Sequence record: PQ351811
From: Shigella phage SSG23
Reading direction: 5' to 3' (one strand)
DNA length: 64,000 bases
The notes under the pieces are model-generated. The model made no database searches and was not told the origin of the DNA. It worked only from the letters and a program-made list of their open reading frames with translations. The position numbers were made by a program, and so were the translations under genes. This document shows positions 18,130 to 61,839 of the stretch, one piece after another; the first letter of the stretch is position 1; every line of letters begins with the position of its first letter.

Positions 18130-18158
18130 TTGACAGGGGATCGCCGATCCCCTATACT
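18130..18158 (+). promoter_or_regulatory. sigma70-like early promoter (PeSL-like cassette)
   Basis: TTGACA then palindromic spacer GGGGATCGCCGATCCCC then TATACT; conserved leader. Confidence 0.7.
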
Positions 18159-55612: not shown

Positions 55613-57436
55613 ATGAGTGAGTTCCGCATTTTATCGGATCGTGAACATGTCCTTAAGCGTGCAGGAATGTACATAGGATCAACTACTTATGAAGAACATC
55701 AACGTTTCCTGTTCGGTAAGTGGACAAAAATTTCATACGTTCCTGGACTGGTTAAAATCATTGATGAGATCATCGACAACTCTGTAGATGAGGCGATCCG
55801 CACTAACTTTGAATTTGCCAATGTGATTAGCGTCGATATCCAAAACAATATTGTTACGGTAACAGACAATGGTCGCGGTATTCCTCAACATATGGTTACT
55901 ACTCCAGAGGGTACGCAGATTCCGCAACCTGTAGCCGCATGGACACGAACAAAAGCCGGGTCTAACTTTGATGATACCAATCGATTAACGCAAGGGATGA
56001 ACGGCGTAGGATCGTCGTTGTCAAATTTCTTTAGCGATTGGTTTACTGGTGTAACCTGTGACGGTGAAACAGAAATGACCGTTCAATGCACAAATGGTGC
56101 TGAAAATATCACATGGTCATCAAAACCATCAAAATTAAAGGGAACAAAGGTTACATTTTGTCCAGACTTCGATCACTTCGAAGGTTATATGATGGACAAC
56201 TCTGTTTTAGATATCGTTCATGATCGTCTGCAATCATTGAGCGTAATATTTCCGAAGATCACGTTTAAGTTTAATGGTAAACGTATTGTTAGTAAGTTCA
56301 AGGAGTATGCTAAACTCTATAATGATGATCCGTTTGTCATTGAAGATAAAAACTTTTCACTTGCCCTAGTTCCTGCGGTTGAGGGTGAAGGTTTTAAATC
56401 TGTATCCTTTGCTAATGGTCTGTTTACCAAAAACGGGGGAACACACGTTGATTATGTGATGGATGATCTTTGTGAAGAGATTGTAAAACGAATCAAGAAA
56501 GAATATAAGGTTGATGTTACTAAAGCTGCGGTTAAGTCTGGTTTGACCTGTATCCTTATTGTTCGTGAATTGCCTAACCTTCGTTTTGATTCACAGACAA
56601 AAGAGCGATTGACTAACCCGACTGGTGATATCAAGCGTCATATTGATCTGGACTTTAAAAAACTGGCTAAGGTCATTGCTAAGAAAGAAAACATTATCAT
56701 GCCTATTATTGCTGTAGTTCTAGCACGCAAAGAGGCAGCAGATAAAGCGGCAGCGACTAAGGCAGCAAAGGCAGCAAAACGGGCTAAGGTTGCAAAACAC
56801 GTTAAAGCTAACCTTATTGGAACTGACGCAGAAACTACCCTGTTTCTGACGGAAGGTGATTCCGCAATCAACTATCTGATTTCTGTACGTGATCAAGATT
56901 TACATGGCGGTTTCCCGTTGCGAGGTAAAACTCTTACAACGTGGGAACAACCGGAGGCAAAGATCGTTAAGAATGCCGAAATTTTTAACATCATGGCGAT
57001 CACTGGCTTGCAATTTGGTGTTGATGCATTGGAAGTTATGCAATACAAAAATATTGCGATTATGACTGACGCGGATACTGACGGGATCGGATCTATTAAG
57101 CCTAGTCTGATCTCTTTCTTTGCACGTTGGCCTGAATTGTTCGAAGATGGACGAATCCGGTTTATCAAAACACCTATTATCATTGCAGAACCAAAGAAAG
57201 GTGATGATGTTCGATGGTATTATGACCTAGAAGATTTCGAGAACGACCGAGATAATATCAAAGGTTATAACATTCGATATATCAAAGGGTTAGCATCGCT
57301 TACAGAATCAGATTATCATCGCGTGATCAATGATCCTGTCATGGAGATCATCACGTTACCGGAAAACTATAAAGAGCTATTCGATTTGCTCTATAGCGAA
57401 GATTCAGACCGCCGTAAAGAGTGGATGTGTAGCTAA
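55613..57436 (+). CDS. 39: DNA topoisomerase II large subunit (gp39, apparently fused with gp60 region)
   Basis: GHKL ATPase motifs DNSVDEA, DNGRGIP, GMNGVGSS; TOPRIM LFLTEGDSA and MTDADTDG; 607 aa. Confidence 0.9.
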   Translation: MSEFRILSDREHVLKRAGMYIGSTTYEEHQRFLFGKWTKISYVPGLVKIIDEIIDNSVDEAIRTNFEFANVISVDIQNNIVTVTDNGRGIPQHMVTTPEGTQIPQPVAAWTRTKAGSNFDDTNRLTQGMNGVGSSLSNFFSDWFTGVTCDGETEMTVQCTNGAENITWSSKPSKLKGTKVTFCPDFDHFEGYMMDNSVLDIVHDRLQSLSVIFPKITFKFNGKRIVSKFKEYAKLYNDDPFVIEDKNFSLALVPAVEGEGFKSVSFANGLFTKNGGTHVDYVMDDLCEEIVKRIKKEYKVDVTKAAVKSGLTCILIVRELPNLRFDSQTKERLTNPTGDIKRHIDLDFKKLAKVIAKKENIIMPIIAVVLARKEAADKAAATKAAKAAKRAKVAKHVKANLIGTDAETTLFLTEGDSAINYLISVRDQDLHGGFPLRGKTLTTWEQPEAKIVKNAEIFNIMAITGLQFGVDALEVMQYKNIAIMTDADTDGIGSIKPSLISFFARWPELFEDGRIRFIKTPIIIAEPKKGDDVRWYYDLEDFENDRDNIKGYNIRYIKGLASLTESDYHRVINDPVMEIITLPENYKELFDLLYSEDSDRRKEWMCS

Positions 57437-57441
57437 AACAC

Positions 57442-57469
57442 TTGACATACAAGGGAGATTCTCTATAAT
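57442..57469 (+). promoter_or_regulatory. sigma70-consensus promoter
   Basis: TTGACA-16-TATAAT followed by GGGAGTCTCCC hairpin and T-run. Confidence 0.6.
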
Positions 57470-57503
57470 GGGAGTCTCCCTTTTCTTTTATGAGGATTTA
57501 ATA

Positions 57504-58261: not shown

Positions 58262-58519
58262 ATGAGTCGAAGTTTTGATTTTATGTTCGCCAAGTATCAT
58301 CGAGACAAGAAATCGATGGACCTGTTTATGGAATGTTTGAGGTATGAATATGCTCACCTTCGGAAGAACAAAATTGATCCGCAAGTTTCCTACGAAAACA
58401 TCAAGAAATATGCGAAAGAAGTGATTGACAATAATTGCACCGTGACATATAATGCGTTTATTGATTTATGGGCGTGGGATGTAATCTACGCAGAGATGGA
58501 CAAAGAAGATTTTAATTAA
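58262..58519 (+). CDS. hypothetical protein
   Basis: Track ORF; AAGGAG SD. Confidence 0.5.
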   Translation: MSRSFDFMFAKYHRDKKSMDLFMECLRYEYAHLRKNKIDPQVSYENIKKYAKEVIDNNCTVTYNAFIDLWAWDVIYAEMDKEDFN

Positions 58520-58533
58520 GTGAGGATTATATT

Positions 58534-60642
58534 ATGAAAATGCATATTGATAATGAAGAAGTATTTGGCAGTGACCTGAGCGGTGCGGTTGATTTTTCAC
58601 TGAAAGCAAGTAGCAAGGCTTTTATGGTGCTTTCTAAGAACACATATCAATATTGTGAGCGTGCTTGCGTCCGTGAGTATTCGTGCAATGCTACCGACAC
58701 TCACAAAGAAGCCGGAACCTTAGATCGTCCGTTTGATATTCATTTGCCGACTGCAATCGAACCGTATTTCTCTGTACGTGATTATGGTACTGGTATTCCA
58801 TCTAAGAAAGAATTAGAACAACTGTTTACGGTTTACTTTGAATCAACCAAAGACCAGACTAATGACTATATCGGATCTTTTGGTTTGGGTGCGAAGTCTG
58901 CTTATAGCTACACCGACACCTTTACAATCGTGAACTATTACAATGGTCGCGCTTATGGCTTTACTGCATTCGTGCAAAACTCTATGCCGAAAATGGTGCA
59001 GATTTTCGACGAACCAACCTATGAAGACAATGGTCTGAAAATCACTATTCCGGTGAAAGAGAAAGATATTCAGACATGGCATCGAGAAGCACAATTTGTA
59101 CTGCGTCATTTTGGGGAACATAAACCGAATATCAACGCAATCGAAATTAATTATTTCCCTAGCTTTGATAATTATTATGTGTGTAATGGACGTGATAACG
59201 ATTCCTATGTGGTATATGCAATCATGGGTAAGATCCAGTATCCGATCCCGTATGAATATGTTCGCGGAACATGGTTAGAAGCTGTAAACCGCCAGCACCA
59301 GACCATTTACATTAATTTTGAGTTGGGTGATCTGGACCTGATGCCATCGCGTGAAGAAGTTCACTTGTCAATTGAGACTAAAGCGAACATCGAAAAACGT
59401 ATTGCAGAAATCAATGAAATGATGTTGGAAAAGGTTAAAGAGAAGATCGCCAGCATTGAAACGGAGCGTAAACTCGCGCAATTTATGAGCGAGTATTCAT
59501 CGACTCAACGCAATATTATTAGCAAGATGGGTAAGATCGGACAATGGGACGATCCGGTAGCAATCTATAACAAGTTTGTAAATGCTGGTAAAGATTCGCC
59601 TAATGACGTAGAAGGTCAAGTGTATACTCTGTATCGTACTCGACACACAATCAGCAAATTGCGCCCTGCTTTCGTTAGCAGTCAATACAACATTACGCAC
59701 TTTGTATGGATTCATAAAGAAGATATTCTATGTGTAATTGATGATACGGATAAACCGAAACTGCGTGCACTGACTCTTAACGGCATGGTCCAGGAATACG
59801 GCATCAATAAAAAGGTACTGGTGTTCCGTCAGAGCAACGAAAAACACATGGAGACTTTCGAGTACATCAAACAGTATTATGATGAATCGGAAATGACCGT
59901 GATTAAGGTATCCGAGGCCGATGATCTGCGTGCTAAAGCAGTTAAGCCGGAGAAGACCGAACGTGCACAGCGTGAAGCTACTCCTAAGCTGCCTAACGTG
60001 TATATCATGGAAAAGATTGGTGACAGTTGGCATAAAACCAGCCATCATATGAAAGCGGCAGAGATTCGCGAGTTATCAGGCTTGCACATGTTCCGCGTGG
60101 GTGATGCATTCGAAAGCCGTAGCCGTCAATCGATCTATAGTGAAGATACCTTACACACGGCGCTTGACTACTTCGGGGTAACAAAGTATATTATTACCAG
60201 AAACGAGACACAAAAATATCTCGTTGACGAACAACTGGAATGCGCGCTAGAATTTGTTCGCGGTAAGCTGGCTGGTCTGGCTAAGAAGGTTAAGACCAAT
60301 CATCTGGGGTATGGCGAATATCTGGGTGTGATCACTATGTTGTTTCATGACGATGAATTAGAACGCTGTATTCCAGAATTTATTGACAGACTCTATGGTC
60401 GTCATTATAATAAAGAGGTTTCCAAGTTGCTCCTTCGTACTCGTTGGATTATGGACGAAGAAACTAAGAAGATCTGCGATGAAAAATTCACGGCAGCAAA
60501 CGAACGAATTAAAGCAGTTTGTGCGAAGTTTAAAGAGAATAGCCCGTTACTGTATGATATTGTAGATAACTGGTATCGTATTCTGCATAATGACAAACGC
60601 GCACAAGACTTTATGAAACTGGTTAAGAATGTTAAATTTTAA
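58534..60642 (+). CDS. rIIA: rIIA protein (GHKL-type ATPase fold N-terminus)
   Basis: 702 aa; DYGTGIP and GSFGLGAKS ATP-lid motifs; precedes rIIB as in T4. Confidence 0.8.
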   Translation: MKMHIDNEEVFGSDLSGAVDFSLKASSKAFMVLSKNTYQYCERACVREYSCNATDTHKEAGTLDRPFDIHLPTAIEPYFSVRDYGTGIPSKKELEQLFTVYFESTKDQTNDYIGSFGLGAKSAYSYTDTFTIVNYYNGRAYGFTAFVQNSMPKMVQIFDEPTYEDNGLKITIPVKEKDIQTWHREAQFVLRHFGEHKPNINAIEINYFPSFDNYYVCNGRDNDSYVVYAIMGKIQYPIPYEYVRGTWLEAVNRQHQTIYINFELGDLDLMPSREEVHLSIETKANIEKRIAEINEMMLEKVKEKIASIETERKLAQFMSEYSSTQRNIISKMGKIGQWDDPVAIYNKFVNAGKDSPNDVEGQVYTLYRTRHTISKLRPAFVSSQYNITHFVWIHKEDILCVIDDTDKPKLRALTLNGMVQEYGINKKVLVFRQSNEKHMETFEYIKQYYDESEMTVIKVSEADDLRAKAVKPEKTERAQREATPKLPNVYIMEKIGDSWHKTSHHMKAAEIRELSGLHMFRVGDAFESRSRQSIYSEDTLHTALDYFGVTKYIITRNETQKYLVDEQLECALEFVRGKLAGLAKKVKTNHLGYGEYLGVITMLFHDDELERCIPEFIDRLYGRHYNKEVSKLLLRTRWIMDEETKKICDEKFTAANERIKAVCAKFKENSPLLYDIVDNWYRILHNDKRAQDFMKLVKNVKF

Positions 60643-60653
60643 GAGGTGATATT

Positions 60654-60785
60654 ATGACTAAACTGACCGCTATCCAGAAAGAAACTATTCGTAAACAATA
60701 CGCTCGCGGCTTGACTAAAGGCGAACTGGCACGAATCTATAATGTATCAGACCGCACAATCCGCAAGGTTGTCGAAGCAAAATAA
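60654..60785 (+). CDS. small HTH protein paralogous to rIIB N-terminus (43 aa)
   Basis: AGAGGTG SD; ELARIYNVSDRTIRKV resembles ALAAAFGVSRRTASRVL at rIIB N-terminus. Confidence 0.45.
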   Translation: MTKLTAIQKETIRKQYARGLTKGELARIYNVSDRTIRKVVEAK

Positions 60786-60846
60786 TTCTGGTATAATGAT
60801 GTGAATCGGGCGGCGATAGTCGCCCACTAATAGAGGAATGAATACT

Positions 60847-61839
60847 ATGACTAAAGCAAAAATCACCGTCTCTGACCGTAACGTTCAATGCCTGGACTCT
60901 GCGAAACAAATCAAACTGGCTAAACAGTGGGGCGAAGGTAAGTTTACTACCCGCGAAGCACTTGCGGCAGCATTTGGTGTATCTCGTCGCACTGCCTCCC
61001 GTGTATTACTGATTCAGAAAGACGCAGTAGCGGAAGGTCGCAAGGCACTGGAAAACCGTAAAGCACGCCGTAAAACCAGTAAAGGAAAAGGCGGTGAACG
61101 CGCAAAAAAGCCCGTGACTACTTCCTCAAAAATCGTAGCAATAGCCTCATCTAAATTCATTACTATTACATGTGGTGACATTGTTTATACTGCTGACCCA
61201 TCACATGTTAACTTTAATGAAGCACTGGAAGCGATTAAACAAAATGATTTCATCAAAGCTATTACGCTGATTGACATTAAGAAAGCGGTTGAAGTATATT
61301 ATCACGGCGCTTTCCGTATCGAAAATGGCATTGTGTATTATCATAATATTGTTCTTGATAATAATCTGACTCGTCGAGTTGTTGAGTCGATTAAAGAGAA
61401 TAAGCCATATACGCACTATCTGAACTTCTTTGAGAAGTGCAAGAAAAACCCTAGCCGTAAGGCGGTAGATCGTCTGTTTGACTTCTTAGAGCACAACGAC
61501 ATTGAGATCGGGGAAGATGGTTGTTTCTATGCATGGAAACGTGTTGATGTTGATTATAAAGATTTCTTTACGCATACGTTTGATAATAGCCCAGGGCGCA
61601 CGGTTAAAATGAAGCGTAAAGACGTGGACCCAGATGATGACCGCACTTGCTCTAATGGCCTCCATGTTGCAGCGAAACACTACATTCCGCACTATGGCGG
61701 TGGACGAGGCCGAATCATTAAATGCAAAGTTGATCCGCGTCACGTTGTAAGTATTCCGAAAGATTATGCGAATGCCAAAATGCGCTGTCATCGTTACTAT
61801 GTGGTTGAAGATGTAACCGAAGGTTTTAGCCATTACTAA
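60847..61839 (+). CDS. rIIB: rIIB protein
   Basis: SKKAVDRLFDFLEHNDIEI..DGCFYAWK..NGLHVAAKHYIPHYGG..PRHVVSIPKDYANAKMR matches remembered T4 rIIB; ATG 60847 after GAGG. Confidence 0.88.
   Translation: MTKAKITVSDRNVQCLDSAKQIKLAKQWGEGKFTTREALAAAFGVSRRTASRVLLIQKDAVAEGRKALENRKARRKTSKGKGGERAKKPVTTSSKIVAIASSKFITITCGDIVYTADPSHVNFNEALEAIKQNDFIKAITLIDIKKAVEVYYHGAFRIENGIVYYHNIVLDNNLTRRVVESIKENKPYTHYLNFFEKCKKNPSRKAVDRLFDFLEHNDIEIGEDGCFYAWKRVDVDYKDFFTHTFDNSPGRTVKMKRKDVDPDDDRTCSNGLHVAAKHYIPHYGGGRGRIIKCKVDPRHVVSIPKDYANAKMRCHRYYVVEDVTEGFSHY

Follow-up and report, generated by a model that had tools for sequence, protein, structure and literature searches.

Between the genes rIIA and rIIB of an RB49-like phage lies a 43-codon open reading frame (ORF), which is followed by a promoter-like element and a hairpin. 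The locus raises the question whether the small ORF is a gene, how it came to lie beside rIIB, and what its product might do there. The stretch of 64,000 nucleotides from Shigella phage SSG23 that was analyzed (PQ351811; the window in the following) belongs to a Krischvirus, i.e., an RB49-like "pseudo-T-even" phage of the T4 type. Its positions 60300-61300 are 100% identical to Shigella phage SFHK24 and share at least 95% identity with 57 other records. In GenBank the small ORF is annotated as "hypothetical protein", in phage Phi1 it is ORF274, and its entry in PHROGs, phrog_15481, is listed with function unknown; the phrog_15481 protein was found in 58 of 58 matching Krischvirus records. The features of the locus are, in their order along the window:

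55613-57436, upstream of rIIA: gene of topoisomerase subunit gp39, with gp60 apparently fused (607 aa)
between gp39 and rIIA: four small ORFs
58425..58453, plus strand: perfect match to a sigma-70 promoter upstream of rIIA, TTGACA-17-TATAAT (12/12), putative promoter
58534..60642, plus strand: rIIA, 702 aa (phrog_612 RIIA, E=5.9e-188; annotated as RIIA in relatives)
60383..60411, plus strand: perfect TTGACA-17-TATAAT inside the 3' end of rIIA (12/12), 271 nt before the small ORF, putative promoter
60643..60649, plus strand: Shine-Dalgarno (SD) sequence GAGGTGA of the small ORF, directly behind the rIIA stop codon (60640-60642), with 4 nt between it and the ATG
60654..60785, plus strand: 43-codon ORF for a predicted free-standing tri-helical helix-turn-helix (HTH) protein (phrog_15481; homologous to the rIIB N-terminal module)
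60769..60797, plus strand: predicted promoter of the PeSL type (see below), TTGTCG-17-extended -10 TGGTATAAT, 10/12 consensus positions plus TG
60808..60825, plus strand: predicted stem-loop GGGCGGC-GAUA-GUCGCCC, 7 pairs including one G-U, loop GAUA
60833..60836, plus strand: SD sequence GAGG of rIIB
60847..61839, plus strand: rIIB, 330 aa (phrog_609, E=2.2e-106)

The rIIB start at 60847 (MTKAK...) matches the GenBank annotation of relatives, and an alternative ATG at 60838 directly adjoins the SD sequence with zero spacing. Small ORFs lie 3' of rIIB, and in the relative kaaroe the gene of topoisomerase subunit gp52 comes next (L001 5594-6940; relatives are designated by such numbers in the following). 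In this clade, the rIIA-rIIB pair lies between the genes of both large subunits of topoisomerase II, gp39 and gp52, and the order gp39/rIIA-rIIB/gp52 was also seen in L003, L008, and L010.

The 43-codon ORF with a good SD sequence that the original prediction had described is indeed present. It extends from the ATG at 60654 to the TAA at 60783-60785 and encodes MTKLTAIQKETIRKQYARGLTKGELARIYNVSDRTIRKVVEAK. Only 11 nt separate the rIIA stop codon from its ATG, and the SD sequence abutting this stop codon would allow translational coupling of the small ORF. An SD sequence precedes the ORF in all relatives (GAGGTGA, GAGGTAA, or TGGTGA). Protein searches and context look-ups yielded eight variants of 43-45 aa from six divergent lineages, down to 69% identity, and every variant whose contig extends that far lies between rIIA and rIIB. 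Among the lineages, synonymous sites are near saturation (pS 0.52-0.86 versus pN 0.05-0.26); of the 15 pairs, five are saturated, and the other 10 have a computable dS and a dN/dS of 0.03-0.31. The C-terminal 24 residues of the small proteins are invariant (TKGELAR[IV]YNVSDRTIR[KR]VVE). The stop codon is also kept in all lineages, so that the product is not covalently joined to the C-terminal body of rIIB. Because the length is kept in six lineages and dN/dS is low at near-saturated synonymous sites, the ORF is, judged by its conservation, a real gene of RB49-like phages under purifying selection. L010, a more distant T4-type relative with a 53% identical rIIB, has no small ORF in its 83-bp rIIA-rIIB spacer, and the gene therefore characterizes the Krischvirus-like clade.

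The product had been proposed to be a paralog of the segment ALAAAFGVSRRTASRVL at the rIIB N-terminus. A direct BLASTP comparison of the small protein with its own rIIB revealed no significant similarity (E=26), and an alignment of this pair by eye would not exceed chance similarity. In contrast, the family profiles are significantly similar and in the same register: hhalign aligned residues 3-42 of the small-ORF family with residues 15-56 of the rIIB family (98.4%, E=1.1e-14). Paralogy is therefore upheld by the profiles and not by the pair. The best tblastn matches outside Krischvirus among 50,697 phage records were N-termini of rIIB proteins of T4-type phages of Klebsiella, Serratia, Enterobacter, and Escherichia, with at most 52.5% identity over 39 aa. 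The small-ORF HMM matched the N-terminal region of 117 of 121 rIIB proteins, with the well-scoring matches at about residues 5-45, and the alignment with rIIB N-termini of related phages that the original prediction had suggested (MAFFT, 45 rIIBs) places residues 1-43, i.e., from Met to stop, onto rIIB residues 1-45 or so. The shared start MTK, which had been cited as well, holds in the RB49 group only. In relatives the small ORFs start with MSK, MAK, MVK, or MK and the rIIBs with MPRIG, MKRTG, or MSVQV; as a signal of homology, the MTK start was discarded as a coincidence specific to the RB49 group.

An exhaustive HMMER search of 1.8 billion representative proteins gave C-terminal HTHs of homing-type nucleases as the top single-domain matches (at most 48.8 bits). 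They belonged to the HNH (NUMOD4/HNH_3), GIY-YIG, and T5orf172 classes, and multi-HTH proteins were found as well. Because of these nuclease HTHs a specificity control was built, namely, an HMM of 106 rIIB N-termini from T4-like phages outside the clade. The small ORFs scored 43.6-53.5 bits against this HMM, the resident rIIB N-termini of the clade 26.8-31.4 bits, 200 shuffled sequences at most 4.9 bits, and the 148 best non-rIIB HTHs from the 1.8 billion proteins had a median of 26.1 bits. The canonical rIIB N-terminus is thus matched better by the small protein than by the N-terminus of its own rIIB. Among the 148 non-rIIB HTHs, a single one reached the score of the small ORF of the window, which makes the small protein specifically rIIB-like. 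On this profile evidence, the predicted product is a free-standing paralog of the extreme N-terminal HTH module of rIIB. When the ORFs in all six frames of the window were scanned with an HMM, no further convincing copy of the module emerged, and other free-standing mini-HTHs found in the global search (P0253, P0197) were encoded on short unrelated contigs and not beside rIIB.

The AF2 model of the small protein is a three-helix bundle (pLDDT 84.8) with helices at residues 6-18, 22-28, and 33-41. The solved structures closest to it in fold are DNA-binding HTHs, namely, those of IstA, Hin/gamma-delta resolvase, CENP-B, and LuxR/NarL, with a TMq of about 0.6-0.8 (about 0.75-0.82 for IstA, Hin/resolvase, and CENP-B) and E-values that are weak owing to the shortness of the domain. 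Sequence searches of the PDB yielded neither an rIIB structure nor any protein closely related to the small one. For rIIB the mean pLDDT is 88.5, with 92-98 in the blocks covering residues 11-70. A short N-terminal extension is followed in the model by the resident HTH with helices at 18-29, 36-42, and 47-56, a long helix at 58-77, a disordered basic linker at 82-92, and the C-terminal body. Most 10-residue blocks of this body (61100-61839, residues 95-330 approximately) have a pLDDT above 90. A Foldseek search of the PDB with the full rIIB model gave spurious matches only (TM at most 0.2) and no mechanistic lead for the body.

The third, recognition-type helices of the two modules differ. The sequence SDRTIRKVVEA is invariant in the small proteins, while the resident helix GVSRRTASRV[LI]L is kept among rIIBs that are only 59-62% identical. 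In the models, both copies of the module look functional. Two conserved but different third helices argue for subfunctionalization, and neither for decay nor for direct competition. The original prediction had raised the possibility of such competition, or of a regulation of rIIB, at a DNA or protein target common to both; the small HTH protein would then be a dominant-negative or titrating paralog. Such a role would be in line with the location of two members of one module family in adjacent genes and with their separate promoters, by which the ratio of small protein to rIIB could be set independently. However, the divergence of the third helices (SDRTIRKVVEA versus SRRTASRV[LI]L, each conserved in the clade) argues for separate targets and not for a common one, the two proteins show no direct pairwise similarity, and no conserved DNA site accompanies the two modules. 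We therefore regard competition as unlikely. The small protein keeps the canonical module while the third helix of the resident one is shifted, so that the small protein might supply an ancestral activity in trans and would not be a competitor of rIIB.

The nuclease HTHs mentioned above bring up another origin, namely, that an HNH or GIY-YIG homing endonuclease was once encoded between rIIA and rIIB and that its DNA-binding domain survives in the small ORF, domesticated or in decay; the ORF would then not be a copy of the rIIB module. The highest single-domain scores of the global search, to NUMOD4/HNH_3, GIY-YIG, and T5orf172 HTHs, are compatible with it, and T4-type phages carry many homing endonucleases between their genes. 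The module class is broad, and 40 residues hold little phylogenetic signal; the small protein scores 26.0 bits against Pfam CENP-B_N (PF04218), above the cut-off of 21.2, and 21.1 bits against Sigma70_r4 (PF04545), below the cut-off of 24.1. Yet the fit to the rIIB N-terminus profile was equaled by just one of 148 such HTHs, and most nuclease-linked HTHs lie C-terminal to the nuclease, whereas the small ORF corresponds collinearly to an N-terminus. The 11 nt between the rIIA stop codon and the ATG leave no room for remnants of a nuclease, and strong purifying selection and constant length do not fit a decaying domain. A descent from an endonuclease is thus distinctly improbable.

The spacer between the small-ORF stop codon and the rIIB ATG comprises 61 nt, and the extended -10 element and the GGGCG..CGCCC hairpin that had been noted in it were both recovered. 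The extended -10 TGGTATAAT is at 60789-60797, and the -35 TTGTCG lies 17 bp upstream within the last codons of the small ORF (60769-60774) and matches the consensus at 4/6 positions only. A transcription start would be expected near 60804-60805. The hairpin has 7 pairs; the spacer has a minimum free energy of -17.9 kcal/mol (z = -2.58), and 3 of 200 shuffled sequences fold as well. No U-tract follows the stem (the next sequence is ACUAAUAGAGG), and therefore it is not a canonical intrinsic terminator; it was also absent from the list of the terminator scan. An Rfam scan of 60300-61100 matched no family. Stems located behind the -10 would be separated by 3-4 nt from the start of the rIIB transcript and might also serve as 5' stabilizers.

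Across the lineages, the small-ORF stop codon is followed by a spacer of 52-78 nt with a hairpin and, in five of six lineages, a promoter. Despite saturated synonymous divergence, TTCTGGTATAAT of the promoter is identical in L003, the 69%-identical relative. The promoters of the relatives are TTGACA-17/18-TATAAT, TACAAT, or TATTAT; in L008, the spacer contains the hairpin and no promoter site at the scan threshold of 10/12. Every relative has a GC stem of 7-9 bp in its spacer (folding energy -14 to -19 kcal/mol), and the stem sequences are unrelated. The position of the stem differs as well: it follows the -10 in three lineages (window, L003, L008) and lies around it in the others (L004, L006/L007, L012). 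The upstream stop codon is found in an AT-rich stretch before the -35 in L004, L006/L007, and L012, a PeSL feature that is absent from the window. The rIIA-rIIB spacer of L010 (3418-3500) contains a GGGAG-ttcg-CTCCC hairpin and then GTTTAC...TATAAT, with a T4-early-like -35, so that a hairpin and a promoter before rIIB also exist in a relative without the small ORF.

PeSLs (promoter-early stem-loops) have been described as strong sigma-70-like early promoters with a GC-rich stem-loop, followed by an SD sequence and a start codon (PMC2839356). About 50 of them are present per RB49-type genome, and the stem-loop can be found in five positions, i.e., between the boxes, overlapping either of them, upstream of the -35, or just downstream of the -10 (PMC2839356). 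With lacZ reporters, promoter activity was found for one PeSL and strong termination for one stem-loop (PMC2839356). ORF274/273 and rII are absent from the main text of that study. By its sequence, the promoter with the hairpin before rIIB fits an ordinary PeSL regulatory cassette of the kind already described.

The window contains 46 near-consensus sigma-70 sites (13.4 expected), 43 of them on the plus strand, in keeping with a long array of early genes interspersed with numerous PeSLs. At several sites a GGGG...CCCC stem separates the boxes, e.g., at 18130, 27844, 35298, and 57442-57482. The latter, on the plus strand just after gp39, is a textbook PeSL with TTGACA-16-TATAAT, a 13-bp stem AAGGGAGATTCTC...GGGAGTCTCCCTT with the -10 hexamer in its loop, and a T-rich tail behind. 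A promoter-like site of 10-12/12 is present in the last 400 bp or so of rIIA in all six lineages (window, L003, L004, L007, L008, L012), at the same codon only within the pairs window/L007 and L008/L012, and the varying position suggests promoter turnover with retention of function. In T4, rIIB likewise has promoters inside rIIA.

The inverted repeat could also be read as DNA, i.e., as the palindromic operator of the small protein, which would be an autoregulatory repressor at the rIIB promoter. The arms flank the -10 hexamer in L004, L006/L007, and L012, the position of a classic operator. However, they are unrelated between lineages (GGGCGGC, GCGCC, CGTCCTGA, GCGTCCC, GCGCCC, GCGTCCTG), and the same type of GC stem is found in dozens of PeSLs elsewhere in the genome. 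The operator was rejected because the arms change between lineages while the third helix is invariant, and we judge it very improbable.

Scarcely credible is the reading in which the ORF would not be expressed on its own, being a chance ORF or being joined to rIIB by ribosome bypassing as in gene 60: the GCA AAA TAA at the ORF end (60777-60785) and the GCA AAA at rIIB codons 4-5 (60856-60861), two GCAAAA repeats at a distance of 76 nt that flank a hairpin and an SD-like GAGG, superficially resemble the layout of T4 gene 60, but bypassing was rejected because matched take-off and landing codons are not conserved in relatives (L003 and L007 lack them), rIIB is provided with an SD sequence, an ATG, and a promoter of its own, and a chance ORF is ruled out by dN/dS far below 1 together with an SD sequence in all lineages.

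How a copy of the rIIB module may have come to stand alone is indicated by other phages. The rIIB of the metagenomic relative L003 (4685-6064, 459 aa) contains three tandem HTH modules (residues 1-43, 56-112, and 144-196) in addition to the small ORF upstream, and two to three modules were found in two further of 120 rIIB clusters (three in the rIIB of Aeromonas phage phiAS5, P0082; two in P0098). Duplication of the module does happen at the rIIA-rIIB locus. In Jiaodavirus, rIIB begins directly after the rIIA stop codon, and the small ORF occupies this canonical position of rIIB. The 5' end of rIIB might thus have been duplicated and inserted, or a tandem-HTH rIIB might have been split by a stop codon and a regulatory cassette; under both scenarios the PeSL cassette would now mark the junction between the small ORF and rIIB. 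We infer that the gene arose by one of these two routes.

Taken together, we hold it to be moderately probable that the small ORF is a free-standing gene for an rIIB-type HTH, which originated by duplication or fission with a PeSL at the junction, and whose product is an in-trans accessory of rIIA/rIIB. The competition, endonuclease-remnant, operator, and bypass readings are ranked lower than this in-trans reading. The consensus early promoter at 58425 would give a joint transcript of rIIA and the small ORF, and the consensus promoter inside rIIA at 60383 might be a second source of transcripts. Translation would start from the strong SD sequence that abuts the rIIA stop codon. The extended -10 promoter before the hairpin would restart transcription for rIIB, and the GC hairpin might attenuate read-through or stabilize RNA ends. 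The last and weakest step is that the small protein may supply in trans the binding of nucleic acid or of a partner that the rIIB N-terminus ancestrally performed.

The start of T4 rIIB is reportedly dispensable for growth on K-12(lambda), as is said to follow from the r1589 deletion and the frameshift work of Crick and Brenner; no relevant source for this was found in the open-access literature. If the start is dispensable, the role of the module may be subtle or conditional.

On the basis of its HTH, rIIB has been treated as a possible transcription factor (PMC7824862). It has also been treated as an anti-RexAB protein that is toxic in E. coli, and it is known as a trigger of bacterial gasdermin/CARD immunity (PMC10312443). 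A more far-reaching proposal would be that the free-standing module is a working third component of an rIIA/rIIB anti-defense module, to which we assign a low probability. It could take one of three forms. The small protein could provide the ancestral N-terminal binding of rIIB in trans and thereby free the resident module for a new specificity; it could be a decoy for host sensors that detect RIIB, e.g., gasdermin/CARD-NLR systems (PMC10312443); or it could be a sequence-specific protein that recognizes PeSL stem-loops and promotes the shuffling of cassettes, a protein on which Arbiol et al. have speculated (PMC2839356).

Even after some 70 years, how the rII proteins work biochemically has not been explained. 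The occurrence of the module as a separate, strongly conserved protein of 43 aa offers a clean handle on the rIIB N-terminus, because work on the small gene, from its deletion or tagging to purification of the module and its supply in trans, would leave the rest of rIIB untouched. In addition, the "hypothetical protein" phrog_15481 gains a functional annotation, and split gene 43, the first case of a PeSL at a junction of gene fission or duplication, is joined by a second one. The novelty is modest: the promoter with hairpin is an element type that is already known, and what is new is a re-annotation and a small case of domain duplication or fission at a famous locus, not a new kind of system.

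The closest known counterpart of the small protein is the N-terminal module of rIIB (PF26926/phrog_609). Their collinearity begins at the initiator Met and extends through helix 3, and they share the predicted three-helix fold and the locus directly after rIIA. In contrast to that module, the small protein is free-standing and is not tethered to the rIIB body by a basic linker, and rIIB itself has retained a second, diverged module beside it. The tri-helical fold is also shared with the HTHs of IS21 IstA, Hin/gamma-delta resolvase, CENP-B, and homing endonucleases (CENP-B_N, HTH_7, and Sigma70_r4-like), and the motif KLT..Q...I...Y..G.T..ELA..Y.VS..TI..V is common to them and the small protein. 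However, those HTHs bind DNA within larger enzymes, whereas the small protein has no catalytic or other domain, and membership in this broad HTH class says nothing about its target.

With the PeSLs of RB49 and Phi1 (Arbiol et al., 2010, PMC2839356; Comeau et al., 2014, PMC4122927) the rIIA-rIIB spacer shares the intergenic early promoter of the sigma-70 type and the GC-rich GGGC...GCCC stem-loop, followed by the SD sequence and the start codon of the next gene. Both of its arrangements belong to published subclasses, the stem being downstream of the -10 in the window and "overlapping the -10" in some relatives. It differs from the published examples in its sub-consensus -35 (TTGTCG) inside the upstream ORF, in the stop codon between the two hexamers, and in its downstream gene, which is the named, conserved rIIB and not an ORFan. 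PeSL-like sequences have also been found between the split DNA polymerase cistrons g43A and g43B of T4-type phages of Aeromonas (PMC2839356). In both cases two cistrons stand for what is usually a single chain, with a PeSL-like element at the junction. Unlike in split gene 43, the larger cistron, rIIB, retains its own copy of the module, which points to duplication plus fission and not to simple fission.
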